NCBI GenBank assembly: GCA_028715115.1
Contig: JAQUSN010000001.1
Span: 67,314-131,313, forward strand
Direction of reading: 5' to 3'
DNA: 64,000 bases
DNA from: Patescibacteria group bacterium
Lineage (GTDB): Bacteria > Patescibacteriota > Patescibacteriia > UBA2591 > UBA4787
Below are positions 5,751 to 64,000 of this stretch, piece by piece. The notes beneath the pieces are model-generated. The model saw only the letters and a program-made list of their open reading frames with translations, had not been told where the DNA came from and ran no database searches. The stretch's first letter is position 1; every line of letters starts with the position of its first letter. The position numbers and the translations under genes were made by a program.

Positions 5751-5898
5751 AAAAATAATGATTACGAATTAATGAAATACAACATATCTTATTATAGCAG
5801 TCTTCTTTTAAAAAAACAATATTTCATTGACAAAAATTTACTTTTATATATCATATAAATACGCGTCTCTAGTGGTTGTAATAACTTAAGGAGAGCAA

Positions 5899-6258: not shown

Positions 6259-6307
6259 GCGTACACCGATCAGACAAGGAGGACCAGTCCAGCGTGTATC
6301 CATTCTA

Positions 6308-6344
6308 GCCCGCCGCAGCTTATCTGCGGCGGGCCTTATTATTT
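6308..6344 (+). terminator. Intrinsic terminator (GCCCGCCGCAG-CTTAT-CTGCGGCGGGC + T-run)
   Basis: Perfect 11 bp GC stem, 5 nt loop, then CTTATTATTT. Confidence 0.65.
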
Positions 6345-6359
6345 AAAAAAATATCAATC

Positions 6360-6388
6360 TTGACAAATCACTAAAATTTTGCTACAAT
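6360..6388 (+). promoter_or_regulatory. Consensus sigma70-type promoter TTGACA-N17-TACAAT
   Basis: TTGACA at 6360-6365, 17 nt spacer, TACAAT at 6383-6388; AAAGGAGG RBS at 6411-6418 then GTG start at 6424. Confidence 0.65.
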
Positions 6389-6423
6389 TACAATATAAGC
6401 ACACAAACCAAAGGAGGAATGCC

Positions 6424-6888
6424 GTGAGAAAAACGCTTGTGGCCGTAAGCCTCGTCTGCCTTCTGACCGTCCCGACCTTCGGGTTCGACGTGGTCAAATT
6501 GACCATGTGCAGCGGTCAACCGGCCAACTTCAAGGCTGCCACTACCCTGTTCGGACCGCTGATGGCCAGGATCGGCATCCCGATCCCAGCCAAGCCTATG
6601 TCCATCAACTTGGGTCTTGGAGCCATGTTCCGGATCCAAATGAACCAGAACAGCGTCTTGAGTCTCAATCCGCTCATCGCTATGACGGTGAGCGATACCT
6701 CGCAGGGCCCAACGCCCTACGTACCGCTCATCTCATCAGACAACGTCTTGAGCCTCTGCCTCGGCAAGACAACCGGGCCAGAGTTCGAAACAAAGTTCGC
6801 GGCCGACTACTGCCTGACCGCAGCGCCGGGCGATCCCAAGATCGTTCCCTCCGGATATCTCTTCGGACTCCAACGACTCAACGGCTGA
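6424..6888 (+). CDS. Secreted hypothetical protein (signal peptide) in GC-rich island 1
   Basis: GTG start 5 nt after AAAGGAGG; N-terminus VRKTLVAVSLVCLLTVPTFG is a signal peptide. The six-frame ORF track opens at an upstream ATG (6379) that lies before the RBS. After the TGA at 6886 the same frame stays open for 61 further codons. Confidence 0.5.
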   Translation: MRKTLVAVSLVCLLTVPTFGFDVVKLTMCSGQPANFKAATTLFGPLMARIGIPIPAKPMSINLGLGAMFRIQMNQNSVLSLNPLIAMTVSDTSQGPTPYVPLISSDNVLSLCLGKTTGPEFETKFAADYCLTAAPGDPKIVPSGYLFGLQRLNG

Positions 6889-7096
6889 GCCGTTGGCGCA
6901 CAAGCCGACGCTAAGTACAAGAAAGGATTGACGTTGTACGCCGGACCGCGAGCCGATCGGATCATCGGCAAGTTCAGGCTCTACTTCGCCTGGGAACGGC
7001 TCATTACCGCGCCCAGCGCGCCCACGCCCCCAAGTCAATGGACATGGAAGGCGGAAGGCAAGTACAGCTTCTGAACTAAGACCTCATCTTCACAGA

Positions 7097-7126
7097 GGGC
7101 GTCGCAAGACGCCCTTTAATTTTATT
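7097..7126 (+). terminator. Intrinsic terminator (GGGCGTC-GCAA-GACGCCC + TTTAATTTTATT)
   Basis: Perfect 7 bp GC stem followed by a T-rich tract; marks the right edge of GC-rich island 1. Confidence 0.55.
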
Positions 7127-25020: not shown

Positions 25021-25053
25021 AAAACGGCCCCAGGTAAAACCCAGGGCCGTTTC
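25021..25053 (-). terminator. Hairpin AAACGGCCC(CAGG)...(CCCA)GGGCCGTTT downstream of the GC-rich island 2 gene
   Basis: 7-10 bp GC stem followed on the minus strand by TTTTACTTTTTATT. Confidence 0.5.
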
Positions 25054-25067
25054 TGCGATTTGGAGGC

Positions 25068-26562
25068 CTAGCGAATAAGGACGAGCCTGACTGGCGGCGA
25101 ACCATCCGAGGTTCTTGCTTCGTAAACGCCATTCGGCGCCGCGAAACCGCCATCGTCTCTTCCATCCCAGAGACGCCCTGATTCTCGTCCAGCAACATGC
25201 CTGACGCACCGGCCGGTAGAGTTATAGATTTTAACCGAGTTGACGCTGGTTAAAAACCTAAACTCCCTGCCAATCGTCGGCTTAACGACCAGCGGCTTTC
25301 CGGCATGGATTAAGGTCGAGCTTTCTTCGATGCCCATGGCTGGCACAACCAGACGAACGCCATAGCCAAGGTGATGAGCCACTTTGTGGCGCCGACCCAC
25401 GGCTATAATCGTATCTCCCCTGGCTATCCAGTCGCGAAGACAGAAACTCGGTAGGAAACTGTCTGATCCATGGAATGTCCAGAGGGTATCTTGATTCGCA
25501 TAGTCGAATGCCACAACCAGGCCGTGGCCAAAGGCGCCGCCACCCTGACCGACTGCTATTACTACGTGCCCGCTGGCCCATTTCTTCAGCCTATACAAAA
25601 CCGAAGGGTTGCCGTATGAGAAGTAGGATTTGGTCCAAAGCGTATCGCCATTTCTTAGGTCAACAGCCATAAACCAGAATCTTCCTTCATCGTAACGCGA
25701 AGTCTTTGCTACCACTAGGGCGATAGTATCATCCAGTTGCTCGACGTCGGCGGCGTCATCGGCCGAATCGGGATTGCCGTAAGTGCGACTCCATAACAGC
25801 TCCCCCGCCGTATCCAAGCGGGTAACAGATATGTCCCAAGCATGCATTTCGTTGGTGTCGGCGACAGTGCCAACAACAATAAAATCGCCATTGGTAAGAC
25901 GCCGCATGCTTCTAACGCTGTCCTTTCTGGCAAGACTATAGGTCCGACGCCAAATCGGAACAGCGTGACAGTTGATCTTCATCAACAGCAGATTGGACAT
26001 GCCGAGTTCTTTGCGGGTAACCGAATCAACCGGACGGTTCTCTCCAGCCACCATGATGTTACTATCGTTGGGCAACATGACTGCGGCTCGGACGTAGTCA
26101 TCGCTCGGGAGTACGGGTAGATGGTAGAAGAAGTTGATGCTGTCGAATCGCTCGTTAACAGCTGCCTGAACCGCGAAAAAGCCGCAGAAAGGATGGTCCC
26201 CCGAGAGGTTCACGCCAACCGCATAGAAAGTATCCCTGTGACTAAATAGCTCACAGGGATCTTCGTGGGTGTAGACGTAGGGGGGCGGAACATTATAGGC
26301 ACGCCGTCCCAATACCTCCCCCTGTGTATTCATCCGGAACAGAGCAACTGGTAGCGTCGCGGCTCCTGGCGGAGTCGGCTCCCAATCAAAAGTACCCAAC
26401 ACTATGAGCTCATTGCCCCAGGGAGCTTCATAGATCCGATAGTACAACGACCCAAGAATGCATGTATCCCGAAACTCCCCCCAGGTTGATAGGCGCTACA
26501 GCCGACGCAGTCGTGGCCAGAAAGACCACGACCAGACAGACGACCATTATCAGGTGTTTCAT
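25068..26562 (-). pseudogene. Frameshifted gene for a secreted beta-propeller-like protein with T9SS-type C-terminal sorting-domain-like tail (GC-rich island 2)
   Basis: The ATG at 26562 with an AAGGAGG RBS gives signal peptide MKHLIMVVCLVVVFLATTASAVA, and that frame stops after 44 codons. The 459-codon body is in the +1 frame with no start of its own (the track uses an internal TTG). Deleting one G from the G6 run (C6 on the plus strand, 26477-26482) fuses the two. The C-terminus VKIYNSTGRCVRHV...LWDGRDDGG...GVYEARTSDG...RLVLIR matches the Por/T9SS CTD or FlgD-Ig-like pattern. Coding GC is about 58% by eye. Confidence 0.55.
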
Positions 26563-27142
26563 TTTCTGCCTCCTTAGCAGAGTTTGTTAAAGATCTCCTC
26601 CTGATTGAGCCATAATAGGCCCATGATTCGGTTTTATCGCGTTTTAAAATAATGTCAAGCCCATTTAGAACAACTTTACCCCGTTAATCAGGAAGCTGTC
26701 ATTAAAACTAGGCATAAATTAATTTTAATATTCGAGTAGAATATTCCTTTTTAAAAAATAGGGATTAACGGGGATTACTAACTGCCTTTGTTTTGACTTT
26801 AATATATTACTTTAATGCATTAATGTTAACATTTTGACTCATATTTCTACGGCCGTTAAAATGTGAGTCAAAAAACAATTTATGCCATTTATTTACATAT
26901 ATATAAATAAGGGCCATGTTTACGACGTTATAAAAGAGAAATATAAAATTTTCTAACTGGGTAAAGGTACAATTTTCTGCTATAATAAATAGTATCAAAC
27001 GTACAATTTATAGTATATAACCTATAATATTTAATAAATATGCGTATTGGCATAGACGCTCGCCCCCGGTCACAAGCAGGGCATGTGAGGGGACGTCGCT
27101 CGTTTAAACCAATTACGTTATCATGATTAAATAATTAATAAT

Positions 27143-27682
27143 TTGGCTTTGTTTATGAAGATAGGAATAGACGCTCGCTTCTTTGGCCCACAGGGCAAAG
27201 GAATCGGCAGATACACAGAGAAGTTGATTGAATCTTTGGAAAAGCTCGATCAAAACAACGAGTATTTTATCTTTTTAACTAAAGAGGGGTTTGATTTGTA
27301 TGAACCTAAAAACAAGAACTTCCATAAAGTTTTAGCTAATTATCCTTGGTATTCTTTTAAGGAACAATTGCTTTTGCCAAGACTACTAAACCAATATCAT
27401 TTGGATTTGATGCATTTCTTACATTTTAATAAACCACTACTCTACAAAGGAAAGTATGTGGTGACTATACATGATTTGACCTTGTTGGATTTCTCGACAA
27501 AAAAAAACACCCAGGGAAAATCCTGGTGGTGGTTTAAAAATATTATTTTTAAAATCGTCATCAGTCAGTCAATAAAAAGCTCGGAAAGAATTATCGCTGA
27601 CTCGCAATTTATAAAAAACGATCTATTGAAAAGGTTTAAAATACCAGAAGATAAAATTAAGGTTATAGAGTTGGCAGTGTAA
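27143..27682 (+). pseudogene. Glycosyltransferase family 4, N-terminal fragment only (truncated)
   Basis: 179 aa; MKIGIDARFFGPQGKGIGRYT is the canonical GT4 N-terminus, but the ORF ends after the first Rossmann half. The 5' end of the gene is partially duplicated at 27041. Confidence 0.55.
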
Positions 27683-28495: not shown

Positions 28496-28546
28496 TAATT
28501 CTATTACTAAATATTTTAAAAAAATATTTAACTAAAACTAATTGGG

Positions 28547-28578
28547 GGCCCGCGGCAGGATACCGCGGGCCCTTTCTG
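28547..28578. terminator. Bidirectional hairpin GGGCCCGCGG-caggatac-CCGCGGGCCC between convergent genes
   Basis: Perfect 10 bp GC stem; left edge of GC-rich island 3. Confidence 0.6.
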
Positions 28579-28639
28579 ATCGAAATCGAGCTACGAACCT
28601 CCAGTCGTAGTCGAAGGGATGGTAGATGTCGTCTAGGAA

Positions 28640-30157
28640 TTAACGAACGACGATAACCTTGTGAGTCTTTTCCAGGTCAGTATCAAACAGGAAGAACACT
28701 CCCTGCTCGATCGGGTCCTGAATTCGCCGTCCATTGACGTCGAAGATGACGAACTTGTGTTGAGCGAAGACGCGCTTGAAAGACGCGAACGGGATGACGG
28801 TAGGAAGGGGCGCCTCGTGATTAAGCACATTTGCCTGCTCTTCAAGTATACTGGTTGGTAGTATGTAGATGCTGTCGACAAGGGTGTCGTTGTGTGGCGA
28901 CTGGTCGCCCGAGAGCTGAGTGACACAGCGAACGCGCACCCATCCAGTAGTGCTATCGCTACGGGACGAAAAGCTGATGAGAGCTTCGTGGTTGGGAAGT
29001 ACTTGCGAACTGGTGTCTAGATAGCGGTTGGAATCGACGTAGAGTTCAGCTGGAATGACAGTGGGGTAAATGCCGTGATTTTTGACGTTGATGTTAATGC
29101 CAAACGAGACGTTGAGATTCACAGTGTCTGGAACGACCAGCTCCAGCGGCTGAGCATCGATTGAGTCGATGATAGCTGGCCGAGGCCACAAGACAAAGAT
29201 GTCTTTAAGGTGGCCCGGATCGACAATCTGGTAATCCTCGTATCCTGGCCTGGTGTTTCGAGCTCGAATCCAGGTAGAACACTTGGCTACAGAAAGTCGG
29301 CTGTCGTTAAAGCCAGGTAGATCGCGGCCATTAACCGTATCAATCGCAGTCAACCAATAGCCGGGCGGAGTGCCGTTCGTGCTGCGATACCAGCTCGGTT
29401 CAATCCCACCGCACAGCACTGTTCCCAGATGAGTCCAAAACTCAAGCTGGTAGTTGACGTCATTCTCGCATCCTGGCGTATATGGTGCGCCGGGATACTC
29501 GTAGTCATCAGCCCAGCCTGGAGACCAGGCTGGCTGGGGTCCGGCCGCGCTTACGACTACAGTCTTATAACGGATGGCTTCCGGCGCTTTACAGCCAAAC
29601 CAGGTAGCAATGCCCTGGTGCAAACTGTCTACACCAGTACCAAAGGCGAAACAAGACCAAACGGCAACGAACTTGTAGCCAGGCACTGCACAGCACCAAG
29701 CAGCTAACATACTGTCGGTCAGGACTTCGTTGTTCCACAGAACCGTCTGCCAGAGATGCTCTGGTGGAGGGCAACCATGGCCGATAACCTGAACAACCAG
29801 GATGTCGTTGGAGTCCATCTGACTACCATAGCTGCTAAGGTGGCGCTGAATGCTTGCGAGCGTAGTCGAATCATCAATCGGCGATCGCCGATATTTCACA
29901 CTAACGCCCGAAAGGGGATTTCCCCGCTGTGGCCAAGCATTGCCCATCAGATTGACGTTAGTATCGACCTGAAACCGGCCGTCCTGGCAAGCCGAGTCAT
30001 ATCCTTTCACCTGATACCACATGCAAATGTCGTCACTCATGTTCTGAGCATTGGACGTGCAAATGGTCAGACTGAAAACCTTCTGGGAGTCCGGCGTCTG
30101 GGCAAAACCCAAGCCGAACAGCACCAGAACGAACAGAGCGGGAAAGAGCTGTTTCAT
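28640..30157 (-). CDS. Secreted protein with T9SS-type C-terminal sorting-domain-like tail (GC-rich island 3)
   Basis: 505 aa; signal peptide MKQLFPALFVLVLFGLGFAQ; Cys-rich body; C-terminus KFVIFDVNGRRIQDPIEQGVFFLFDTDLEKTHKVIVVR resembles a T9SS CTD. AAGGAG RBS 7 nt before the ATG. Coding GC about 55% by eye. Confidence 0.6.
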   Translation of the reverse strand: MKQLFPALFVLVLFGLGFAQTPDSQKVFSLTICTSNAQNMSDDICMWYQVKGYDSACQDGRFQVDTNVNLMGNAWPQRGNPLSGVSVKYRRSPIDDSTTLASIQRHLSSYGSQMDSNDILVVQVIGHGCPPPEHLWQTVLWNNEVLTDSMLAAWCCAVPGYKFVAVWSCFAFGTGVDSLHQGIATWFGCKAPEAIRYKTVVVSAAGPQPAWSPGWADDYEYPGAPYTPGCENDVNYQLEFWTHLGTVLCGGIEPSWYRSTNGTPPGYWLTAIDTVNGRDLPGFNDSRLSVAKCSTWIRARNTRPGYEDYQIVDPGHLKDIFVLWPRPAIIDSIDAQPLELVVPDTVNLNVSFGININVKNHGIYPTVIPAELYVDSNRYLDTSSQVLPNHEALISFSSRSDSTTGWVRVRCVTQLSGDQSPHNDTLVDSIYILPTSILEEQANVLNHEAPLPTVIPFASFKRVFAQHKFVIFDVNGRRIQDPIEQGVFFLFDTDLEKTHKVIVVR

Positions 30158-30226
30158 TGGATTTCTCCTTATTTCTTGGGTTTTTCTGTTTCTTTGCTTG
30201 CTCTGACACTTGTCAAAGAGCTATTT

Positions 30227-30258
30227 ATTATAATACACCAAAAATTGACAAAAGTCAA
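30227..30258 (-). promoter_or_regulatory. Promoter TTGACT-N17-TATTAT(AAT) for the island 3 gene, overlapped by TTGAC-N4-GTCAA palindromes
   Basis: Minus strand reads TTGACTTTTGTCAA-tttttggtg-TATTATAAT...TTGACAAGTGTCA...AAGGAG...ATG. Confidence 0.55.
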
Positions 30259-30455
30259 CCCGTAAAGCTAACTTTTGCACTATGAGGTTTTCTCGCTACA
30301 TTTGGTCTAATATTTATATTTTTAGTAATTTTCATTAACTATGACGCCACGGGTCACGGCCCGTAAAGCTAACTTTTGCACCGCGGATTTTTTTGATTAA
30401 TTAGCTTACTTTTAGTCCAGAATCTAACGCAACACTCTTGACGCCACGGGTCACG
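30258..30455. repeat. Interleaved direct repeats: A = (A/G)CCCGTAAAGCTAACTTTTGCAC x2 (30258-30280, 30359-30381); B = TGACGCCACGGGTCACG x2 (30342-30358, 30439-30455)
   Basis: Exact 22/23 bp and 17 bp copies spaced about 100 bp apart, in the order A-[B A]-B, upstream of the island 3 promoter; a degenerate third A-like copy lies at 30511-30530. Confidence 0.75.
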
Positions 30456-53042: not shown

Positions 53043-54731
53043 ATGAAAAAGCTTCTGCCTTACATTATAATTTTCCTGCTAGTTTTAGGATTTTTCACCT
53101 TTTTGCAGTCCGCACCGCGACTAGGCGACGGTGATTCTTTTTATCACGCCAAAATTACCGAATTAATGATTCAGGGTCGTGCACCGGTTAAAATTTTTCC
53201 TTGGCTGCCTTACACAATTTTAAACAACTTCTATTACGACCATCATTTTTTGTTTCATATCTATCTTGTTCCTTTTCTTCTACTGATTGGCCAACCGTTG
53301 GTAGCTATTAAGGTCGGGACGATAATTTTGGGCGCACTTTTTGTCACCGTGCTCTATTGGTTTTTACGCCGCTATCAAATTAAATACGCACTGCTTTATC
53401 TTATTCCAGCCATCACTTCATATGTGCTAATCGTCAGATTAAATTTAGATAAAGCACCTGGCGCTTCGCTAATTTTCTTCTTGCTGGGCATTTATTTCAT
53501 TTTACAAAGAAAAAAAATTGCCCTAGCAATTTTGTCTTTTTTGTATGTTTGGCTTTATGACGCCTGGCCGATTATTTTAATCACCACCCTGGCTTATTGC
53601 TTGGCTGTCGCCATTAAATCCGTTATCGATGATTGGCCCGCCTTAAGCAAAACTTTGGATAAAAAACTACTAAAGCAGGTTTTATTCTTTATTAAAAAAA
53701 CCTTTGTTGGTTTTTTCAGTAAATCAAATCTAGCTCTCTTGGGGTCGTGCCTGATTGGCTTGATAGCCGGTATTGTTATCAATCCATACTTCCCTAATGA
53801 TTTAAAGTTTTTCTGGGTTCATATCGTCAAAATCGGCATTTTCACACCAGGCTTAAAATACGGAGTTGGCGCTGAATGGTATCCTTACGACACCATTGCT
53901 CTGGTAAAAGAAAATATTTTAATCATGGCTCTTTGGCTATTTACAGTAGCTTGGTTCTTGGTTAGTTTTAAAAAACCAAGTAAAACCTTTCCTGAGGTAG
54001 AACCGCTTTTACCTCAACTCGGGCAAAGCAAAGAATCACTGTTTCTTGTTATTCTAAATACCTTTTTCTTTTTATACACGCTTAAGGCCAGGCGCATAGC
54101 TGAATATTTTATTCCGCTCACGGCCATCACCGCGGCTTTTGTTTTAAATAAAGCCATAAAAAATATTAACTTTAAAGAATTTTGGCAAGAAATAAAAAAC
54201 GTATTCCTTAAGCCACGATTCATTTTAATAAGCATGCTCATCGCCCTGTTGATTGTAGTCTCGCTGGGCGCCCTAATCGGATCAATCATAAAAATTCAGC
54301 AAAATACTTTTAATTATTTCCGTCAAACCGCGCCAGCTTTTGACAGATTCTCCGGCGTCACTAACTTTATGAAAAACAACACGCCGGCCCGTTCGATCGT
54401 TTTCCATAATTCCTGGGCTTCATTTCCTGAATTCTTCTATCACGACGATAATAATTATTATATCACCGGCCTCGACTCAACGTTCTTCTATGACCCTAAT
54501 CCTAGATTATATAATCTTTGGAAAGATATTACTCAGGCAAAAATTTCAAACAACTTAGCCGCAGAAATAAAAAATAACTTTAAAGCCGATTATGTTTTGG
54601 TCCAAAAAGAAGATGCTTTGTATAGAAATAACGAAACTCAAAATCTCATAAATATCATAAACGCCGATTCTCATTTTCAAAAATTATACGAAGATAAAGA
54701 AGCTATTTTTTATCAAATTAGCGGGATATGA
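53043..54731 (+). CDS. Polytopic membrane protein, GT-C-type (ArnT/PMT-like) glycosyltransferase candidate
   Basis: 562 aa; 11 or more TM helices; first extracytoplasmic loop carries GDGDSFYH, where GT-C enzymes have an acidic loop motif. Confidence 0.4.
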   Translation: MKKLLPYIIIFLLVLGFFTFLQSAPRLGDGDSFYHAKITELMIQGRAPVKIFPWLPYTILNNFYYDHHFLFHIYLVPFLLLIGQPLVAIKVGTIILGALFVTVLYWFLRRYQIKYALLYLIPAITSYVLIVRLNLDKAPGASLIFFLLGIYFILQRKKIALAILSFLYVWLYDAWPIILITTLAYCLAVAIKSVIDDWPALSKTLDKKLLKQVLFFIKKTFVGFFSKSNLALLGSCLIGLIAGIVINPYFPNDLKFFWVHIVKIGIFTPGLKYGVGAEWYPYDTIALVKENILIMALWLFTVAWFLVSFKKPSKTFPEVEPLLPQLGQSKESLFLVILNTFFFLYTLKARRIAEYFIPLTAITAAFVLNKAIKNINFKEFWQEIKNVFLKPRFILISMLIALLIVVSLGALIGSIIKIQQNTFNYFRQTAPAFDRFSGVTNFMKNNTPARSIVFHNSWASFPEFFYHDDNNYYITGLDSTFFYDPNPRLYNLWKDITQAKISNNLAAEIKNNFKADYVLVQKEDALYRNNETQNLINIINADSHFQKLYEDKEAIFYQISGI

Positions 54732-55948
54732 CTTTAAACAAAAATAATTCCAATAAAATAACCATTGTTTTTTTAATCGGAATAGCCATAATTATCCGCT
54801 TGATTTTGGCCCTTATTAATGTCTATCCGTTTGATTTTTGGTGTTTTGGCCAATGGACGGCCAGAATCTTATCGTTAAACAATGCTTTTAATTGGTCAGA
54901 TCTTTATCTCAACCTGCCACCTGAAACGGTTTATCCGGTACTGCCAGTCGCCCTTTATGGCTATGGATTATTCGGTTTTTTGGGAAAAATAATTTTCGGC
55001 CATCAGCTTTTTACTTCGCCGTTTATTGCCCGCATTGTTTTAAAACTACTAGCCATTGTTTCCGATTTATTAGTCGGATTTTTTATTTATAAACTGCTAG
55101 TACCGAAATTTTCTAAGACAAAAGCCATAGTTATTTCTTTGTTTTTCTTACTTAATCCGGCGGTGTTTTTTGTCTCCAGTTTATGGGGGCAAATCGACGC
55201 CTTGGGCGCTTTAATGGTTTTAATCAGTGTTTATTTTTTGAATAAAAAATTCTACCGCTGGGCCTGGATTTTTATTTTCTTAGCTATTTTAGCAAAACTG
55301 CAAAGTATTTTTTTCCTGCCCTTAATTTTTGTTCTGGACTTCTGGAATAATCACTGGCGTAAAACTATTATTAATGTCGCGGTTGCTTCTTTAGCTGTTT
55401 TTGTAATTTTGTTGCCCTTTATGGCCGCTTTATTAAAATTATTATATATTATGTTTTCCGGTGCTGGTTTTTACGCCTATTTATCGATCAATGCCTTCAA
55501 TTTTTGGCAAATTTTTCAATGGCGGCCAATCCATCTGAATTTCATCGCAGAAAACCATTGGTATCTTTTCGCGGCCCTGATTATTTTCGCTGTTTTCTAT
55601 TTTTTGATTTTGAAAAAATTACTCAAAAATCAAAATACTTATAATTTAACTTTTGCTTGCCTGCTGATCGCCTTTAGCGCTTTTATGTTTTTAACGAAAA
55701 TGCATGAAAGATATCTTTTCCCGGCGATTATGTTTATGCCGATTCTTTTGTCTTGGCAAAAAAAATATTTGGCCAACTATATTCTAATTTCCTTGTGTTA
55801 TTTGGCTAATTTGATTTACGCGCTTTTTGCCATTAAAGCCCTCTACCAAATATCTATTGTTTTTGCGATATTGAATTTAGCTAATTTTGCGCATCTTTTT
55901 TATGATTACTACCAACAAAAAAATTCTAATCGTCCTACCCACCCTTAA
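54728..55948 (+). CDS. Polytopic membrane protein, GT-C-like (DUF2029/mannosyltransferase-like)
   Basis: 406 aa; about 10 TM helices; ATGA overlap with the upstream gene. Confidence 0.4.
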   Translation: MTLNKNNSNKITIVFLIGIAIIIRLILALINVYPFDFWCFGQWTARILSLNNAFNWSDLYLNLPPETVYPVLPVALYGYGLFGFLGKIIFGHQLFTSPFIARIVLKLLAIVSDLLVGFFIYKLLVPKFSKTKAIVISLFFLLNPAVFFVSSLWGQIDALGALMVLISVYFLNKKFYRWAWIFIFLAILAKLQSIFFLPLIFVLDFWNNHWRKTIINVAVASLAVFVILLPFMAALLKLLYIMFSGAGFYAYLSINAFNFWQIFQWRPIHLNFIAENHWYLFAALIIFAVFYFLILKKLLKNQNTYNLTFACLLIAFSAFMFLTKMHERYLFPAIMFMPILLSWQKKYLANYILISLCYLANLIYALFAIKALYQISIVFAILNLANFAHLFYDYYQQKNSNRPTHP

Positions 55949-56642
55949 TGAAGAAAGGGCCTTGAGCGAAAACGTTAAGCGTGTTTTTGATTTCTGCCAA
56001 GATAATTTAAGTAATTATGATTGGCAAATTTTAATTGCCGACAATGGTTCAACTGACAACACGGTTTACATTTCACAGAACCTAACCAACCAACACCCCA
56101 GAATAACATATTTTCATCTAGATCAACCAGGGCGCGGCCGAGCCATGAAAAAGGCCTGGCTAGAAAATGAAGCTGATGTTTATTTATATATGGATGCTGA
56201 CCTGGCTACGGATTTAAAATATTTACCCCCGCTAATTAAAGCAATTACTGATGAAGGTTTTGATTTGGCGACCGGTTCACGATTAAAAAGAGGAGCAAAA
56301 ATTTCGCGATCTCTATTTAGAGAAATATCGTCACGAACTTATAATTTAATTTTGAGAGTTATTTTTCCGAAATATAAAATCCAGGATTCCCAGTGCGGCT
56401 TTAAAGCTATTTCTCAGCGCGTAAAAATTAAGGTTTTACCTTCAGTCAAAGATCCAATTTGGTTTTTTGACACCGAATTATTTATTCGAGCCAATGAATT
56501 GGGTTTCAAAATTAAAGAAATTCCTGTCGAGTGGCAGGACAATAAATTCGTCAAAAGAAAGACTCGAGTTAAAATTTTAAAAACCGTTACCGACGATTTA
56601 AGAGAAATTATAAAATTAAAAATAGAATTACTAAAAAAATAA
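55902..56642 (+). CDS. GT2 glycosyltransferase, polyprenyl-phosphate sugar synthase (DPM1/DPG-like)
   Basis: KKILIVLPTLNEE...ILIADNGSTDNT...YMDADL motifs. The likely start is the ATG at 55902; the track ORF begins at 55887. Confidence 0.75.
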   Translation: MITTNKKILIVLPTLNEERALSENVKRVFDFCQDNLSNYDWQILIADNGSTDNTVYISQNLTNQHPRITYFHLDQPGRGRAMKKAWLENEADVYLYMDADLATDLKYLPPLIKAITDEGFDLATGSRLKRGAKISRSLFREISSRTYNLILRVIFPKYKIQDSQCGFKAISQRVKIKVLPSVKDPIWFFDTELFIRANELGFKIKEIPVEWQDNKFVKRKTRVKILKTVTDDLREIIKLKIELLKK

Positions 56643-56805
56643 AAGTAGCTTTACGGACTTGCCCAGTTAGAACAACTTTACTAATACCCTAGTTTCGACC
56701 CATTTTGGTCGTTTTTTAAATTAATATAATATTTTAGTGAATAAACTATTTAACAATACTAGATGAGGCATTGAGGGGGAGAAACGTAAAATTTTCTAAC
56801 TGGGG

Positions 56806-56834
56806 TTGACAAAAAGACAAAAATATGATAGAAT
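56806..56834 (+). promoter_or_regulatory. Consensus promoter TTGACA-N17-TAGAAT for the island 5 lipoprotein gene
   Basis: TTGACA at 56806-56811, TAGAAT at 56829-56834; directly preceded by the 18 bp repeat TAAAATTTTCTAACTGGG. Confidence 0.6.
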
Positions 56835-56903
56835 CTTAATAAGATATGGGGCCGTACTAGGAGGTATGGCCTTCTATGTCGAAGTAGAAACAAAGGAGGT
56901 ACT

Positions 56904-57711
56904 GTGAAGTTCGTTACCACCCTACTGATCGCCATAATGGCGGTCATGTTCGTCGGCTGCGCCACCACCGGCATTACGCCGAATCCCACCGCCGGCTTCA
57001 GGTTTGAGTCGCAGGTAGTCGGTGACCCCCGAGACCGGCCTGCAGACACCAATCGCCAGCGCCGAAGTCTCTATCTCCGGCGCCAACATCCAAGACAGAG
57101 CCCTGCGGGATACGATCATAAAGAACGTCAAGGGCAAATTCGACGAGTTGGTTGACCAATGCCTTCAGTTCAACAACCTCGTCCTAACCAAGGCTGTTCT
57201 GGATATAAAAAAGCGGGATGCCGAAGACTCTATCTTAAGAGCGCAGGGCGTGATCAAGGCCAAGGTGGGCATCATCAACGGCTCTAACCAAGAGCTGTAT
57301 GTGGTGGTCCCATCTCAAGACCGAGGCGTTCGAGTCTGTCCAATACAGACTGCCAAGGTTAACAAGGTGAATGGCAACATTCTCTACCTGACACCAAATT
57401 CCAAAGTACCCCTCGTTGTTCAGAGCAAAGTCAACGGGCGCTGGAGCAAAACGTACACCACTGTCATCGACGTTCCCTACGCAGCTCCAGAAGACCGCAA
57501 GCCCTATCGTGACCTAAACAACGAAGGCTACGACCTCATCTACATCATCAACCTCGACGAGATGAAGCCCGCTTCAACCTCAATCGGAGCTGGCGCAACC
57601 GGAAGTATTGGTGGGGTAGAAAATACCCGTTGCTGCCACAACGACCCAGCCTACTGGCGAACAGCCGGATTCAATGTATATGGGTCCGGACCCGGCGATC
57701 GATTGCGGTAG
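56904..57711 (+). pseudogene. Frameshifted lipoprotein gene (GC-rich island 5)
   Basis: GTG at 56904 after AAGGAGG gives VKFVTTLLIAIMAVMFVGC (lipoprotein signal with lipobox Cys), but that frame becomes Arg-rich nonsense and stops at 57155. The 229-codon protein-like body (57022-57711) is in the +1 frame. Deleting one C from the C5 run at 57026-57030 fuses them (...ESQVVGDPETGLQTPIASAEV...). Confidence 0.55.
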
Positions 57712-57742
57712 ACAAGTGCGGTAGGCAAGAACTTCGAAACAA

Positions 57743-57775
57743 AAGGGACGCCCCTACGGGCGTCCCTTCCATTTT
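57743..57775 (+). terminator. Hairpin AAGGGACGCCC-ctac-GGGCGTCCCTT + CCATTTTACT
   Basis: Perfect 11 bp GC stem 31 bp after the stop; right edge of island 5. Confidence 0.6.
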
Positions 57776-57805
57776 ACTATATTGATATTATTTTTTAGCC
57801 ATCAA

Positions 57806-58225
57806 TTAGGGAGTCGGCGCAACCACGTATTTGATTCTGGAAAGAACAAACATGGCCAAGGCGTAAGAAATCAAAATAATAAATAGGCCGATCACGCCGT
57901 TCATCATTAAAGATTTAGCCTTAGTAATCTTTTCTTCATTGCCGCCGGAGGTCATCCACTGGAAACCACCGATAATGATAATGACCACGGCAATTAGGCC
58001 AAGGAAGCCTAAAACAATGCGAACAATTCGGCCAACAATAATGGCTAGGTCGGTTTGTCCGCAAATTTCCGCCGTACAAGCAGTTCTCTCTAGCTCTTCA
58101 ACTTGAGCATAAGAGGTTAGTACCGGCGCTATGGCTAAAAATATCATAATTAAAAGGCTAACCGCAATTAAATGACGGCTAACCTTTTTAGTTATACTAA
58201 TATTCATTAAATGCTTCATGAACAT
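57806..58225 (-). CDS. Small membrane protein, TrbC/VirB2-pilin-like architecture (paralog 1 of 4)
   Basis: 139 aa; signal/TM segment, then IGRIVRIVLGFLGLIAVVIIIIGGFQWMTSGGNEEKI, then a second TM helix. Confidence 0.45.
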   Translation of the reverse strand: MFMKHLMNISITKKVSRHLIAVSLLIMIFLAIAPVLTSYAQVEELERTACTAEICGQTDLAIIVGRIVRIVLGFLGLIAVVIIIIGGFQWMTSGGNEEKITKAKSLMMNGVIGLFIILISYALAMFVLSRIKYVVAPTP

Positions 58226-58255
58226 TAAAATGAATTATAAAAAATCACTCAATTA

Positions 58256-58651
58256 CTAGTGCTGGGTATTGGTATCAACGATTCTGGTAATCGCGTTCAT
58301 GATGAAAAGCGAAGCAGCGTAAGCAATGACGATAATGAACAAACCGATCACGCCGGCGCCCATTAACTTTTTGGCACCGCCAATCTTTTCTTCATTGCCG
58401 CCGGAGGTCATCCACTGGAAACCACCGATAATGATAATGACCACGGCAATTAGGCCAAGGAAGCCTAAAACCAAACGAACGATACGAGCAATAACCACGG
58501 TTAAGTCGGCATTGCTTAATTCAGTCTGTGTTTCAAACTGTTCCAATCCTTCGTTCATTGGAGGTAGGGCCATGACTATTAGAGGGGCCACCACCATAGC
58601 AGTTAAAGCTGTCGCGATAAGAACTTTTTTCATAGATCCTCTTCGCGCCAT
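58256..58651 (-). CDS. Small membrane protein, TrbC/VirB2-like (paralog 2)
   Basis: 131 aa; same IARIVRLVLGFLGLIAVVIIIIGGFQWMTSGGNEEKI core. A stretch of about 90 bp is nearly identical to paralog 1 at the DNA level. Confidence 0.45.
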   Translation of the reverse strand: MARRGSMKKVLIATALTAMVVAPLIVMALPPMNEGLEQFETQTELSNADLTVVIARIVRLVLGFLGLIAVVIIIIGGFQWMTSGGNEEKIGGAKKLMGAGVIGLFIIVIAYAASLFIMNAITRIVDTNTQH

Positions 58652-58775
58652 TAAGAAATAATGGCGTTTTTAATTAATTTTTAAAAATTAAGAGACTAAT
58701 TAAAAGACTATCTTATATTATTAATATTAAATTAAAATTTTACTTTGTCAATTATTTATCCACACCAGCCCTAAA

Positions 58776-59156
58776 TTAGGGGACTGGACTGACTGATCGG
58801 AAAATAATACTAAAGACAAAGTTAAGAATCGAATAACTGGCAAAAATCAAGGCCAGACCCAAGGCCGCCCAAACCATAGTATCGCGCCCACTTCTGATTT
58901 TATCTTCACTGCCGCCGGAGGTCATCCATTGAATACCACCCCAGATAAACATCACCAAGGCCAAAATTCCCAAAACATTTAAAACGCCGCGAATAATTCT
59001 GCCAATAATAAGCGATAAATCAGTCGTGCATAAAGGGTTGGGCAATTCCCCTGGACCAGCTGTACAACTAGCGGCCTCGGCGAAAACGGGAATGCCCGTC
59101 AAAGACAAAATGATAATTAAGCTAAATGATAAAACTATTTTTTGCCAATTCTTCAT
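58776..59156 (-). CDS. Small membrane protein, TrbC/VirB2-like (paralog 3)
   Basis: 126 aa; IGRIIRGVLNVLGILALVMFIWGGIQWMTSGGSEDKI core. Confidence 0.45.
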   Translation of the reverse strand: MKNWQKIVLSFSLIIILSLTGIPVFAEAASCTAGPGELPNPLCTTDLSLIIGRIIRGVLNVLGILALVMFIWGGIQWMTSGGSEDKIRSGRDTMVWAALGLALIFASYSILNFVFSIIFRSVSPVP

Positions 59157-59184
59157 AAAAATTATAATGAATCAAGTATTAAAT

Positions 59185-59862
59185 TTAATTACCGCATGGC
59201 TGAGCTGTATCACCGAATAAAACAGTGTTGGTAGTTTTATCCATTTTGCCATCCTGGCGATTACAGCTGGTGTTTTTTTCTTGAAAGGCCTTTAGCGCTG
59301 CTTTGGTTTGATCGCCAAAACAGCCATCAATAATCGGTTCTCCGCATTTAAAGGTGGTTAATTTCTGCTGAACGTTGCGAACGGCCGTGCTTTTACAGGG
59401 CACGTCCCAAACGCCGCTATCAACCACTGGGCATTCATTCCATTTTTCAAAACATTTTGGTTGTTGAAGCGAATATTCTTCGTCCACACCTAAAATTTTC
59501 ATAAAATTGAAGACGATTACATAGGCAGAAAGCACTATCACAATGCCGATGACGGCGCCGATAATGGCATTTTTACCGTCAGAAACTTTTTGCGCATTGC
59601 CAGCCGAAGTCATCCAAAGTATCCCGCCATAAATAAAAACCACCAAAGCGGCTACGCCCAAAAATTTTAAAATAATAGAGGCAATATTGATGGCAAATCG
59701 CTCAGCGCTAGTTAGGGTACATTCGCCGTTATCGCGACAATCTTCTATTCCAGACCAAAGATTAATCGATTGGGCCTGAGTGGTTTTTAAAATAAAAAAT
59801 AGGCCACCCACCACTAAAATTATCGCCATCAAAACAATAAATGTTTTTTGTTTATTAAACAT
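59185..59862 (-). CDS. TrbC/VirB2-like membrane protein (paralog 4) fused to a C-terminal Cys-rich putative peptidoglycan-binding domain
   Basis: 225 aa; VVFIYGGILWMTSAGNAQKV core; the C-terminal DGCFGDQTKAALKAFQEKN... matches the PG_binding_1 G.D..T..A...FQ pattern. Confidence 0.45.
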   Translation of the reverse strand: MFNKQKTFIVLMAIILVVGGLFFILKTTQAQSINLWSGIEDCRDNGECTLTSAERFAINIASIILKFLGVAALVVFIYGGILWMTSAGNAQKVSDGKNAIIGAVIGIVIVLSAYVIVFNFMKILGVDEEYSLQQPKCFEKWNECPVVDSGVWDVPCKSTAVRNVQQKLTTFKCGEPIIDGCFGDQTKAALKAFQEKNTSCNRQDGKMDKTTNTVLFGDTAQPCGN

Positions 59863-59866
59863 AATT

Positions 59867-60493
59867 TTACCTTTCTTCTATTAACGGCACGAAAATAAAA
59901 CCGGGAAATTTTTTAGTTTGATAGTCGGTTTGTGTTTTTCGTTCAATTATATATATCTCTTGTCTGTCTATGCCAACCGGCACGACAATACGGCCGCCAA
60001 TTCTTATTTGTGAAAAAAGTTGTTTTGGCAATTCAGCGGAGGCTGCGCCCACATGGATAATATCATAGGGTGCGAATTCGGGCAAGCCTTTCGAGCCATC
60101 GGCAGTCATAAAAACAGCTCGACCGCTGGAAACAAATTTATATTTTTCTGCATTCTGCTCGCCAAATTCTTTAAGTTCATTAATCCTTTCTAGGCCATAA
60201 ATCTTACCCTCTGGTCCGACGATTTCTGAAAATAAAGCTGTAGTCCAACCCGATCCAGAGCCAATGTCTAAGACCCTGTCTCCCCTTTTAGGTTGGCAAA
60301 GCTCCAACATAAAGGCTACTGTTGAGGGCTGGGAATTAGTTTGGCCATAACCAATTTCCTGTGGCACGTCTAAATCAGCCACGCCCCGATTCAAGGATAA
60401 AATAAAATCGGAACGTTTTATCCTTTTAAAAGCCTCGATAATAATCGAAGTTTTAAGAATATCTGATTGTATTAATTGTTCAGCTAAATCCAT
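59867..60493 (-). CDS. pcm: Protein-L-isoaspartate O-methyltransferase
   Basis: 208 aa; VLDIGSGSGWTTALFSEIVG motif I and the pre/post motifs of PCMT. Confidence 0.85.
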   Translation of the reverse strand: MDLAEQLIQSDILKTSIIIEAFKRIKRSDFILSLNRGVADLDVPQEIGYGQTNSQPSTVAFMLELCQPKRGDRVLDIGSGSGWTTALFSEIVGPEGKIYGLERINELKEFGEQNAEKYKFVSSGRAVFMTADGSKGLPEFAPYDIIHVGAASAELPKQLFSQIRIGGRIVVPVGIDRQEIYIIERKTQTDYQTKKFPGFIFVPLIEER

Positions 60494-60588
60494 AACTTTA
60501 TTGCTAGTGGAGTTGGCCCGCTTCGACTTGCGTTAAGCGAGGCAATTAATGAGAGACCTACCCGACAGTAGACAGGGTTTAATACCCC

Positions 60589-61107
60589 TTATTTTTGCAT
60601 AATTTCTTTAATTAGCCAAGTGGAAAAGAGGGCTATTAAGATTCCGCCCAACACATCAGAAGGATAATGCACGCCCCCAACCACGCGAGCCAGACCAATA
60701 ATAAGGGCCGAAATTACAAAAATTATTCCCAAAATTCTGTTAACTCGCCAAAAGTTAAGCGAAAAAACAAATCCTAAAATAGTATGGTTAGAGGGAAATG
60801 ACTGAGAGCTGGTGATGTTGATTAGCTGATCAGAGATTCTATAAACCAAAAACGGGCGGTGGCGGTGATAAAATAAACCGATTAATAAATAAACTAATTC
60901 TGCCAAGGCTAAACTTAGAATCAAACTTAATAAGGCCCGACCATATCTTACCTTTCTCGCTCGAGGCACTAAAAAATAGGACAAAACGGCGATCATCGGC
61001 AGAAAAGCAATCAAGAAATCAGCGAAAAAAATAATCAAACCGTCCAGCCATAAAGAATGCCCAGCTAAACCGTTTAAAAAATTAAAGATGTAATAATCTA
61101 AAGTCAT
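60589..61107 (-). CDS. PAP2-family phosphatase (undecaprenyl-diphosphatase-like)
   Basis: PSNHT and GGVHYPSDV PAP2 motifs. The likely start is the ATG at 61107, which overlaps the upstream stop as ATGA; the track ORF begins at 61212. Confidence 0.7.
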   Translation of the reverse strand: MTLDYYIFNFLNGLAGHSLWLDGLIIFFADFLIAFLPMIAVLSYFLVPRARKVRYGRALLSLILSLALAELVYLLIGLFYHRHRPFLVYRISDQLINITSSQSFPSNHTILGFVFSLNFWRVNRILGIIFVISALIIGLARVVGGVHYPSDVLGGILIALFSTWLIKEIMQK

Positions 61108-63494
61108 AAGGCCTTTTTTAATTTTAAGAATAAACCAAATAAAAACAAGGCCAAGGTCGCGGCGATAAAAATTAAATACTTCGTCGCCTGGCCGTTGGTT
61201 AATTTTAGCCAAAGATTGCCAATTGAAGAAGATAAATTATTTATTTCAGCATTTTTCCCTAAAGGTTCATCTGCTTCAACCGTCTCCATCACAGAATTAT
61301 TTTGAATAATTAAATCACTATTAAATCGCGGTAAAATTTTCCAACCGATCTGATCGGGCAATAAAATTCCTTGTGCTATAACTTCTTGACCTTCTTTAAA
61401 TATTTTTTTATCGATGTCTATTTTATTAGAAATAGAAACAACCACTTCGTCGTTGCCGTCGTCTATAAAAAACTTATTACCTTGTTTATCAATTAATTGC
61501 CCTTGAATTTTTACTAAACTACCAATCAAATCTTCATTTAAATCGCTAATGGTCGTCGATTTTACTTCTGCCGGCTGCCTAACGGAAACTATAACTAAAT
61601 CTTCGGGCTGTTTTATTTTTATGCGATGTTGTGATAAAACAGAAGACAACAAACCCTTAACTTCAACTAAGTCGCCAATTTCTAACGGCGGAAAATCGCA
61701 TCGCGAACAATAAACCTGCAAACCATTTAAATAAAAATATGTTTTGGCGAACATATTTGGCGGCGCGACAACTACGCCTTGAAAAATAATCTTATCATTT
61801 TCCGATAAATCGCTTAAATCAAATAATTCAATGGGCTTATAATCAGAATCACCGCCGGTTTGCTTAAAATTATCATCATTTTCTTCTCTTTCTTCATCCG
61901 AACTAAAAACATTAGCCAATCCCGGCGTAGGATTATTTGTGTAAGCCCAGGTGCCAAAAATATTTTTAGCATAACTGGCTCCCTTGGGCGAATCTTTATA
62001 GTCGATTTGTTCTTGAATGGTTTTATCGGGACGAATGAGGCGAACCGAATCAAAAGTATTATTAAGAATTAGTTTAGTTTGCTGGCGACCTAAAACTAAA
62101 TAATTTTGCGGGGAAATTTTAATGCCGCTGGTAACAATATAAGCGCGGCTGCCTCCTTCGCTATCGTCTAATTGCCAATTACTCAAATCAACTTCTGTTA
62201 AGCTTGGATTAAACAATTCCACCCACTCATTTTCGGCAGCGTCTTTAGGATTGGGCAAAAACTCAGAAATAAAAATTGACGACGTTAGACTTGCGGACTG
62301 CCCGTTTTCCTCACTGGCGGAAAGATCTAAATTATTTGCCTGGCCCGGGGTTGGAATCAAACTAAAATAAAAATCGTTTTTATCGTTATTAGTATCAATA
62401 CCGTTTTGTCGTCCGATAGATTTGCTTTTGCCGGGCCGCAGCGCATTGTCGTCCAGATTCCCATCTTCAAAATCACCGTAAGTAATTTTATCGATAATTG
62501 TTGATCCGTTCTTTAAAATTAAAACGTCACCGCTATTATTTAAAGTAAAAGTAAAATCACCGCTATCCAAAACCTTATATTGTTGAGGAGATAAAATAAT
62601 GTTCGACAAAATTTTTAGTTTAGCAGTATTGTCTTCAATGGTCCAATTATTTAAATCTATTACTTGGTTGGTTGAATTATAAAACTCCGTCCATTCTTTT
62701 TCGTTTTTAGTCAAATCCGGTTCAGGAAAAATTTCACTGATCAAAATGTCTCCCGATTTAATTTCGTATGGCGCACTTCCGCCACCGCCCCCGGAAGGCG
62801 GCATACCGCAATCAGCCGAACAATTCATCTGGTTTTCTCCTGATTCGCAAACGTCATTGCCGCAAACTGGTCCGACAATGGGCGGCGTGGAAGAAGCTTG
62901 TGAATTCTGCGGATTGGGCGTGGTTTGTAAGAAAAAATCATTAAAATTATTATCAGTATCTTCTCCGTTGCCATCGGACGCGCCAGGTTTTCTCTCTAAA
63001 CTTTGGCTAACTCCGGGATTAGCCGGAGTTGAGCTTGTCTCGCCCTCAAAGAAAGGATTAATATGCCTGGTTCCCCAAATTAAAGCATCGATTAAAACAT
63101 CGGTGTCGTCCAATAAACCAATACTATTATTATTGGCGATGGAGGCAGTACTTGTCTCATCGGCAGCAAGGCCCTGACCATAACCATCTTCCGAATTAGC
63201 CCAAAGAAAATGCCCATGAGCTGGGATAGATTTACCGCTAGAAAATACTTTTATAGAATATTCTGCGCCTGATTGGGTTCGTTTATGTAATTTCCACCCT
63301 CCGACATCAACCGCCGATTCGGTGGGATTATATACTTCTATAAAATCATTAGTGGTTTGATCTCCGGTAATCTGTGTTTCGCTAATAACCAAATGATTTG
63401 ACCAGTCAGCTTTAGCAAAATTAAAATAAAAAAAGCCGGAGCACAAAAAGACTCCGGTTAAAACAATCCTAAACGCTATGCTGGACTTGGGCAT
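61104..63494 (-). CDS. Large secreted protein with three lamin-tail-domain (LTD) repeats and a C-terminal TM anchor
   Basis: 796 aa; three segments of the form ISE(T/I/F)...NDFIE(V/F)YNP...VDL..W.L that are typical of LTD; C-terminal hydrophobic helix; N-terminal signal peptide. Confidence 0.65.
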   Translation of the reverse strand: MPKSSIAFRIVLTGVFLCSGFFYFNFAKADWSNHLVISETQITGDQTTNDFIEVYNPTESAVDVGGWKLHKRTQSGAEYSIKVFSSGKSIPAHGHFLWANSEDGYGQGLAADETSTASIANNNSIGLLDDTDVLIDALIWGTRHINPFFEGETSSTPANPGVSQSLERKPGASDGNGEDTDNNFNDFFLQTTPNPQNSQASSTPPIVGPVCGNDVCESGENQMNCSADCGMPPSGGGGGSAPYEIKSGDILISEIFPEPDLTKNEKEWTEFYNSTNQVIDLNNWTIEDNTAKLKILSNIILSPQQYKVLDSGDFTFTLNNSGDVLILKNGSTIIDKITYGDFEDGNLDDNALRPGKSKSIGRQNGIDTNNDKNDFYFSLIPTPGQANNLDLSASEENGQSASLTSSIFISEFLPNPKDAAENEWVELFNPSLTEVDLSNWQLDDSEGGSRAYIVTSGIKISPQNYLVLGRQQTKLILNNTFDSVRLIRPDKTIQEQIDYKDSPKGASYAKNIFGTWAYTNNPTPGLANVFSSDEEREENDDNFKQTGGDSDYKPIELFDLSDLSENDKIIFQGVVVAPPNMFAKTYFYLNGLQVYCSRCDFPPLEIGDLVEVKGLLSSVLSQHRIKIKQPEDLVIVSVRQPAEVKSTTISDLNEDLIGSLVKIQGQLIDKQGNKFFIDDGNDEVVVSISNKIDIDKKIFKEGQEVIAQGILLPDQIGWKILPRFNSDLIIQNNSVMETVEADEPLGKNAEINNLSSSIGNLWLKLTNGQATKYLIFIAATLALFLFGLFLKLKKAL

Positions 63495-63499
63495 AAAAT

Positions 63500-63880
63500 C
63501 TATCTAAAGAAATAGTCCCACCAATTGATTGGATTAATTTGCTGAAATTGTTTTTTATCTATTTGAGAATTTTTATCTTTCTCGGGAATAATTATAGCCA
63601 CTTTTTCATCCGGCCTCTGCAGGCCGAATTTGAGACGAGCCTCTCTTTCCTTATAGAAGTCCGTATTAGCCTGCATTAATAAATTATTTAGCTGGCCGTT
63701 TTTTTCTTCCAAGGCCACGATATTCTTTTCTAAATCTCTTATTTGAGACCTGATGGATAAAAATTTTATCGTCTGCTTGCCCAGGGCTATTAAACAAAAA
63801 ATGAAAATAACGGCCAAAAGAATAGTAAGGTTCGTAGAAGAAAAAAACATTTTTAGTCCGTTATTTTTTCTGTCCTTCAT
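63500..63880 (-). CDS. Septum formation initiator (FtsB/DivIC-like)
   Basis: 126 aa; N-terminal TM helix followed by a coiled-coil region (RSQIRDLEKNIVALEEKNGQLNNLL). Confidence 0.55.
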   Translation of the reverse strand: MKDRKNNGLKMFFSSTNLTILLAVIFIFCLIALGKQTIKFLSIRSQIRDLEKNIVALEEKNGQLNNLLMQANTDFYKEREARLKFGLQRPDEKVAIIIPEKDKNSQIDKKQFQQINPINWWDYFFR

Positions 63881-64000
63881 ATATAATAATTTTACTGCTC
63901 TTTTTTATTAAAAAGACTGCGCCAAACCTGTCGATCAAAGCCCTTTAAATAGTATAAACAAATAAGATAAATCAGCCAAGCTAAGCCGGTTAATATAAAT

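Follow-up and report, generated by a model that had tools for sequence, protein, structure and literature searches.

According to Liu et al. (2004, PMC522871), failed horizontal transfers make up a large share of prokaryotic pseudogenes, and the acquisition of genes by horizontal transfer is documented in Patescibacteria as well (PMC12455944). A gene that has lost its reading frame near the 5' end is, however, not necessarily dead. In homopolymeric-tract phase variation, described for the poly-G tracts of Campylobacter and Neisseria, the tracts of B. pertussis (PMC1891110) and M. tuberculosis (PMC10334774) and the 5' poly(A) of L. monocytogenes inlA (PMC2831843), a single-base change near the 5' end of a gene for a surface or exported protein can be reversed. 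Such tracts were defined in the M. tuberculosis work as runs of at least 7 nt (PMC10334774), while in the B. pertussis screen they had to exceed the length expected by chance (PMC1891110). The frame can also be regained during translation, as in the slippage of tRNAPro on CCC-C (PMC4519876) or in programmed +1 frameshifting of the prfB type. In a limited search of the literature, we found no mention of contingency-type loci in Patescibacteria.

The locus described here is a GC-rich lipoprotein gene, named island 5, in a 64-kb stretch of DNA ('the window') from the AT-rich genome of an ultra-small Patescibacteria bacterium, which was examined together with about 13 kb of flanks. Like the failed-transfer pseudogenes (PMC522871), it is of foreign composition, lineage-specific and broken by a single frameshift, and neighbouring foreign cassettes are also disabled, by a frameshift or a nonsense codon. 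Unlike them, it has a near-consensus host-type promoter, a Shine-Dalgarno (SD) sequence and a terminator, which suggests that the gene was apparently domesticated before it was lost; since its product is an ORFan, no parent gene can be named. As with the transferred genes and genomic islands reported for Patescibacteria (PMC12455944), a single foreign gene sits amid housekeeping genes in a streamlined CPR genome. In contrast to these islands, there are here several single-gene units, each with a promoter and a terminator that are apparently its own, and at least one unit is conserved in synteny in a relative, where it has kept its GC-type composition. In our opinion, island 5 has probably been inactivated by a recent, fixed slippage insertion into a horizontally acquired ORFan lipoprotein gene. 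The coordinates of the features on which this rests are listed in Table 1.

Table 1. Coordinates in the window of the island 5 gene, its signals and the other GC-rich units and lesions
Feature	Position	Strand	Remark
sigma-70-type promoter, TTGACA-17-TAGAAT with extended -10 TG	56806..56834	+	11/12 matches; AT-rich, unlike the gene it drives
Upstream ORF, 13 codons, MAFYVEVETKEVL	56866..56907	+	TGA overlaps the lipoprotein GTG start (GTGA); in frame with ORF 56806..56907
Shine-Dalgarno AAGGAGG	56893..56899	+	4 nt upstream of GTG 56904; sequence reading
5' part of lipoprotein gene, frame 0: signal peptide, lipobox, first mature residues	56904..57029	+	GC3 0.81 in frame 0
TAG in body (+1) frame	57016..57018	+	upstream bound for the position of the frame change
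C5 run, most parsimonious site of the 1-nt insertion	57026..57030	+	putative ancestral C4, GAC CCC GAG = D P E
Lipoprotein body, +1 frame	57031..57711	+	227 codons plus TAG 57709-57711; ORFan
Premature TGA closing the signal-peptide frame	57153..57155	+	preceded by 41 out-of-frame, Arg-rich codons
Intrinsic terminator hairpin	57743..57768	+	11-bp stem, 8 G-C pairs, T-rich tail
Lineage-specific segment holding island 5	56643..57805		between GT2 gene and T4SS-pilin gene cluster
Island 2 gene, restored 497 aa, currently split: signal peptide, beta-propeller-like body, T9SS-type C-terminal domain	25068..26562	-	
G6 run (C6 on + strand), one extra G shifts the frame	26477..26482	-	27 codons into island 2 gene
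In-frame TGA in island 1b exported-protein gene (GTG 6424..7074)	6886..6888	+	GC3 periodicity 0.76 before, 0.74 after
Unit 1a	5899-6258	+	
Unit 1b	6424-7074	+	
Unit 2	25068-26562	-	
Unit 3	28640-30157	-	
Unit 5	56904-57711	+	

In island 5, a CCCCC tract at 57026-57030 (+), which reads ...GAG TCG CAG GTA GTC GGT GAC CCC CGA GAC CGG... in the sequence, is the sole G/C run of at least 5 nt in the gene. The ORF that carries the signal peptide (GTG 56904..57155, +; 83 aa) begins with MKFVTTLLIAIMAVMFVG followed by C, in which FVG precedes, by inspection, Cys19 (codon at 56958-56960). This N-terminus matches the lipobox consensus, and we take its owner to be a bacterial lipoprotein, i.e. a predicted substrate of Lgt/LspA. 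The ORF in the +1 frame (57022..57711, +; 229 aa) opens after an in-frame TAG and ends with TAG 57709-57711. The first-pass annotation correctly had this body start right after a TAG, which it placed at about 57013, while the codon is actually at 57016-57018. Its two main proposals, that the C5 run splits a lipoprotein gene and that the deletion of one C from 57026-57030 restores it, are borne out. The two ORFs meet at the tract, and removal of one C results in a continuous lipoprotein of 268 aa (...ESQVVGDPETGLQTPIAS..., with ...SQVVGDPETGLQTPIASAEVSISGANIQDR as the junction peptide), in which the shift falls at codon 42 of 268, just past the signal peptide. Over 56904-57029 the GC-rich codon position falls in phase 2 (0.81), and from 57031 onwards in phase 0 (0.76), the third position of the body frame. 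This switch of the GC3 phase at the tract argues for a true frame change within one coding sequence and against two genes.

The alternative, that there is no frameshift and that the locus encodes a lipopeptide of 83 aa and, separately, a cytoplasmic protein of 229 aa, is what public annotation implies since only the 229-aa ORF has been called, as a hypothetical protein starting at GTG 57022 (MDD2646417.1 and three further NCBI records). This appears highly improbable. GTG 57022 has no SD comparable to the AAGGAGG of GTG 56904, the 83-aa ORF closes with 41 codons that are Arg-rich, out of frame and in the wrong GC3 phase, and a single promoter and a single terminator serve the whole unit. Moreover, island 2 is split in an analogous way, and there the existence of an intact orthologue proves a frameshift.

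In island 2, the signal-peptide ORF that starts at ATG 26562 (-) meets a G6 run and reaches a stop 17 codons later, while the body ORF (26447..25068, -; 459 codons) lies in the +1 frame. Deletion of one G at 26477-26482 gives a 497-aa protein in which the shift falls at codon 28 of 497, again just past the signal peptide. An intact 485-aa protein from a relative (P0005) is 51% identical over 100% coverage and colinear from Met1 across the shift site (INLGEFRDT versus TNLGEFQDT). Its gene lies beside a divergent GT4 gene encoding 175 aa, with a spacer of 579 nt, the corresponding values in the window being 179 aa and 581 nt. The conserved neighbour and spacer, together with the alignment, identify P0005 as a syntenic orthologue and the G6 allele as a mutation relative to it. 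This allele is identical in the Logan assemblies of SRR22315507 and SRR22315508. All recorded island 2 products begin downstream of the shift, and gene callers have chosen other starts for the 459-aa ORF (cluster member P0148). More distant homologues of island 2 (24-35% identity) have T9SS sorting domains, and the few whose source is named belong to WOR-3, Gemmatimonadales and Calditrichaeota, in keeping with a foreign origin of this island. As for the neighbouring glycosyltransferase gene (27143-27682, between islands 2 and 3), it encodes an N-terminal GT4 domain only (179 aa), and the relative that carries P0005 has the same truncated GT4 (175 aa) in the same divergent position.

Are these lesions present in the DNA? 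Over window 54022-57955, the Logan assemblies of SRR22315506 and SRR22315507 agree with the sequence at every position (100% identity), as does a second NCBI MAG (GCA_028713815.1) over window 53500-64000, and the 229-aa product is found in four NCBI MAG protein records and in Logan assemblies. The MAGs are near-clonal, with three SNPs in 13.6 kb between two of them; they sample a single population repeatedly and do not represent independent lineages. Errors classically arise at homopolymers, and every assembly comes from one study (SRR22315506-08), so that, short of the reads, a systematic platform error in the form of a miscalled homopolymer length is conceivable. Nevertheless, we would give such a sequencing or assembly artefact a next to negligible chance. 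The same sequence has been obtained from independent k-mer assemblies of separate runs and from several MAGs, and C5 is a short run. Furthermore, unbroken host ORFs of the window hold 227 A/T runs of at least 6 nt, 74 of at least 7 nt and 16 of at least 8 nt. Homopolymer-error-prone data would break these, which makes such data unlikely here. The generic artefact that the first-pass annotation had set against its own reading, with A/T-run errors in core genes as its sign, is thus not seen in the window, and the view that there are two frameshifts of the same kind, both in compositionally foreign genes for exported proteins, holds across assemblies and in the GC3 data. The further statement that no long A/T run is disrupted in housekeeping genes is true within the window but not beyond it. 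An AT-rich DUF4202/HD-like gene about 1.7-2.3 kb to the left of window position 1 (10808-11373 in L009, and the same in L010) is split in two MAGs at a T5 run (L009 11107-11111) into ORFs of 101 and 87 aa, whose products match positions 24-98 and 105-178 of the 183 in the Pfam profile, and one extra T would restore the frame. Frameshifts in this genome are therefore not limited to GC islands or to G/C runs.

Island 5 is a GC-rich transcription unit of 1.16 kb with its own promoter, SD and terminator. GC3 in its gene is 0.64-0.81, as opposed to 0.28-0.41 in host genes (up to 0.52 in the pilin paralogues). The genes nearby encode LytR-CpsA-Psr, EngA, Pth, GT2, four T4SS-pilin paralogues and PCMT. 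A relative (L003), whose GT2 is 64% identical, is collinear with the window through the GT2 stop (56641) and again from the gene of a 139-aa pilin (57803), with one pilin paralogue and no cassette between these two genes, which makes the intervening segment lineage-specific. In the closest relative on record (GT2 78% identical), there is at this place a 400-nt gap with no called gene; a scan of GTDB genomes with GT2 gave no match. The gene thus combines the atypical composition of a horizontally acquired gene with absence from a syntenic relative (L003). No target-site duplication or terminal inverted repeats were found flanking island 5, and an IS- or integron-like cassette is accordingly unsupported. 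Several side observations concern the surroundings. The 13-codon upstream ORF has an SD-like AGGAGG 1-2 nt before its ATG, within a small hairpin (GGCCGTAC...GTATGGCC). The four tandem T4SS-pilin-like paralogues occupy window 57806-59862, one of them being fused to a peptidoglycan-binding domain, and short-read Logan contigs break within these paralogues (window 57955). Rfam models detected only a tRNA in the window.

The product of island 5 is an ORFan. Apart from the protein itself, two spurious matches to repeat proteins were all that turned up when a word-indexed search of 5.8 billion clusters, an exhaustive HMMER comparison with 1.84 billion representatives and tblastn-type scans of JGI metagenome contigs, GTDB genomes, IMG/VR, phages and plasmids are taken together. 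The protein has no Pfam or NCBIfam match, and AlphaFold2 run on the single sequence gave no usable model (pLDDT 31). As there is no homologue for comparison, the disruption of island 5 is deduced from a signal peptide left without its body and from the change in GC3 phase, and the in-frame state is its putative ancestral one.

The first-pass annotation had offered contingency-locus behaviour as one explanation for the two frameshifts. Island 5 would then be a phase-variable locus in its OFF state, with the expression of a surface protein reversibly switched by slipped-strand mispairing in the C run (for island 2, in the G run) in what is probably an episymbiont. The layout is indeed that of phase-variable surface-protein genes such as inlA with its 5' homopolymer (PMC2831843). 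Each shift consists of one base gained in a G/C run of the 5' coding region, directly after the signal peptide of an exported protein, the remainder of each gene and its expression signals are intact, and one slippage step could undo either shift. Reversible inactivation by 5'-proximal homopolymers is used elsewhere (PMC2831843, PMC1891110), and minor in-frame subpopulations would be invisible to consensus assemblies. However, the tracts are of 5 and 6 nt, i.e. below the M. tuberculosis cut-off of at least 7 nt (PMC10334774) and below the 7-8 nt that is typically the least for a hypermutable G/C tract, and, unlike what was required in B. pertussis (PMC1891110), they are neither longer nor more frequent than composition predicts. 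In mononucleotide shuffles, 1.8 G/C runs of at least 5 nt are expected in island 5, where 1 is observed, and 0.85 runs of at least 6 nt are expected in island 2, where 2 are observed (p = 0.21). The putative ancestral C4 and G5 arise from ordinary codon juxtaposition (GAC-CCC and CTG-GGG-GAG). In contrast to the described phase-variable genes, no length polymorphism and no ON allele is seen at the level of assemblies, since the four NCBI MAG records and the Logan assemblies of SRR22315506-08 are all OFF, and no in-frame product of the island 5 or island 2 gene is present among about 15 billion proteins (the P0001 cluster has one member). Other lesions that will be discussed below seem difficult to reconcile with switching, being irreversible by slippage (a TGA in island 1b) or situated in a non-surface AT-rich gene (DUF4202). 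Contingency-locus behaviour is therefore unsupported, and we regard it as rather unlikely. The argument that frameshifts in two G/C runs and in none of the A/T runs exceed coincidence is likewise unsupported. There are more G/C runs than A/T runs of at least 5 nt in the island genes (7 versus 5), so that the location of both shifts in G/C runs weighs little. Selection would purge indels from AT-rich genes that are essential, and in DUF4202, a dispensable AT-rich gene nearby, a T5 run is in fact the site of a frameshift.

Another possibility is that the frame is regained on the ribosome. Programmed or usefully leaky +1 frameshifting, in which peptidyl-tRNAPro would slip onto the overlapping CCC of CCC-CGA-G and tRNAGly likewise on the GGG-GGA-G of island 2, might set a low level of full-length exported protein. 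Both sites can be written as XXX-XGA-G; a slipped tRNA would re-pair perfectly in the +1 frame, where GAG follows, and each presents, as read from the sequence, a slippery P-site codon (CCC-C at 57027-57030 and GGG-G in island 2). The experimental CCC-CG motif on which tRNAPro slips is the same as here, CC[C/U]-[C/U] being reported as particularly +1-prone (PMC4519876), and a +1 slip would give exactly the restored protein. In our own reading, there is also a SD-like GGTGA stretch 1 nt upstream of CCC. In prfB-type frameshifting, by comparison, there is a stop or rare codon in the A site, and the shift is conserved. Here, the host uses both 0-frame A-site codons at a frequency that is not low (5.4 CGA and 12.7 GGA per 1000, in 16,877 host codons), and a hungry-codon model was rejected on this ground. 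The island 2 orthologue P0005 is encoded in a single frame, so the shift is not conserved in island 2, and island 5 has no orthologue in which conservation could be seen. Local RNA structure is not significant (z = -1.39), and non-programmed slippage does not exceed about 1%, even where the ribosome is most prone to shift (PMC4519876). We consequently find useful recoding very unlikely, although a low +1 leak is plausible, through which some full-length lipoprotein may still be made.

In the reading that we favour, inactivation of a foreign gene, a self-contained unit made of a promoter, a SD, a GC-rich ORF and a terminator would have been acquired and inserted between the GT2 gene and the T4SS-pilin cluster. 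A genuine 1-nt insertion, most likely by replication slippage, would then have turned C4 into C5, 42 codons into the lipoprotein gene, and would have separated the 227-residue body from its signal peptide and lipobox. Ribosomes that start at GTG 56904 would meet TGA 57155 after 41 nonsense codons, and the body has neither an export signal nor an SD of its own. The ancestral C4 state, the slippage mechanism and the loss of function are what we infer, whereas the sequence, the frame change and its reproducibility, the foreign composition, the lineage specificity and the lack of an in-frame allele in assemblies are observed; each assembly sampled from this near-clonal population has C5 as its consensus. 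Against this reading, there is exactly one lesion in each disrupted cassette. All three expression signals of island 5 (promoter, SD and terminator) are intact and no stop interrupts the 229-codon body, which points to an inactivation that is very recent or incomplete.

This interpretation draws on the other lesions. In island 1b, the periodicity of GC3 goes on for 62 codons past an in-frame TGA, up to a terminator-proximal stop, and the TGA is either a nonsense mutation or a read-through site. It was also noticed that this codon (6886-6888) forms the loop of a perfect 7-bp palindrome (CAACGGC-TGA-GCCGTTG). Together with the DUF4202 gene split at T5, the TGA of island 1b suggests that single-hit lesions occur in dispensable genes regardless of their composition, while essential genes are clean, and this is what mutation plus selection predict. 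It agrees, too, with the finding reported for failed transfers among prokaryotic pseudogenes (PMC522871). Since island 5 is one of several genes with such lesions (the G6 of island 2, the TGA of island 1b, the T5 of DUF4202), we read it as a pseudogene at an early stage, left by a horizontal acquisition that 'failed' or is needed no longer, and not as a regulatory device. Ongoing decay of foreign genes, the other explanation in the first-pass annotation, finds support in the TGA of island 1b, in the lineage specificity of island 5 and in the lack of an intact allele of either frameshifted island gene in public assemblies.

A side issue concerns the cassettes, of which there are five in the window (islands 1a, 1b, 2, 3 and 5), defined as short GC-rich units with a GC3 of 0.58-0.81. 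Including their signals, they extend over 5827-7117, 25021-26656, 28540-30258 and 56806-57768, and they are 53-59% GC in a genome of roughly 38% GC. All five have an SD and, past the stop codon, a GC-rich hairpin; the promoters of most are near-consensus, AT-rich and of the sigma-70 type. A consensus scan flagged a TTGACA-type promoter in units 1a, 1b, 3 and 5 (for unit 2, inspection by eye revealed no more than a TTGACA hexamer) and a terminator in units 1a, 1b, 2 and 5 (the hairpin of unit 3 is without the required T-run). Proteins of two units have T9SS-like C-terminal domains, which are odd for a Patescibacterium. Upstream of the island 3 promoter, window 30259-30455 contains a pair of direct repeats of roughly 100 bp, in which the 22-mer CCCGTAAAGCTAACTTTTGCAC occurs at 30259 and 30360 and the 17-mer TGACGCCACGGGTCACG at 30342 and 30439. 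In the relative, P0005 has a GARP/FYMINK ratio of 1.26, versus a host median of 0.65 and 0.46 for the relative's GT2, and this GC-type amino-acid composition suggests that there has apparently been no amelioration. No high-identity homologue of island 2 or island 5 was found outside the lineage in the collections searched, including the Logan assemblies of the same runs. A bolder proposal would combine these features, the two G/C-run frameshifts being OFF states of reversibly switched or +1-recoded surface proteins that are host-derived and reside in GC-rich cassettes kept compositionally distinct over long divergence; this seems quite unlikely to us.

If only decay is at work, island 5 is a routine but clean case, in which a streamlined CPR genome acquires foreign genes for exported proteins, domesticates them under a host-type promoter and discards them. 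Public annotation misses the lesion, the 229-aa fragment being called an intact hypothetical protein, and frameshifts in short G/C runs should not be taken for contingency loci without read-level data. Should switching or recoding turn out to be true, it would bear on surface variation in episymbiotic Patescibacteria and would bring contingency-type loci to a CPR episymbiont. Perhaps the more puzzling, and the more interesting, thread is the persistence of GC-rich single-gene cassettes with promoters of their own.
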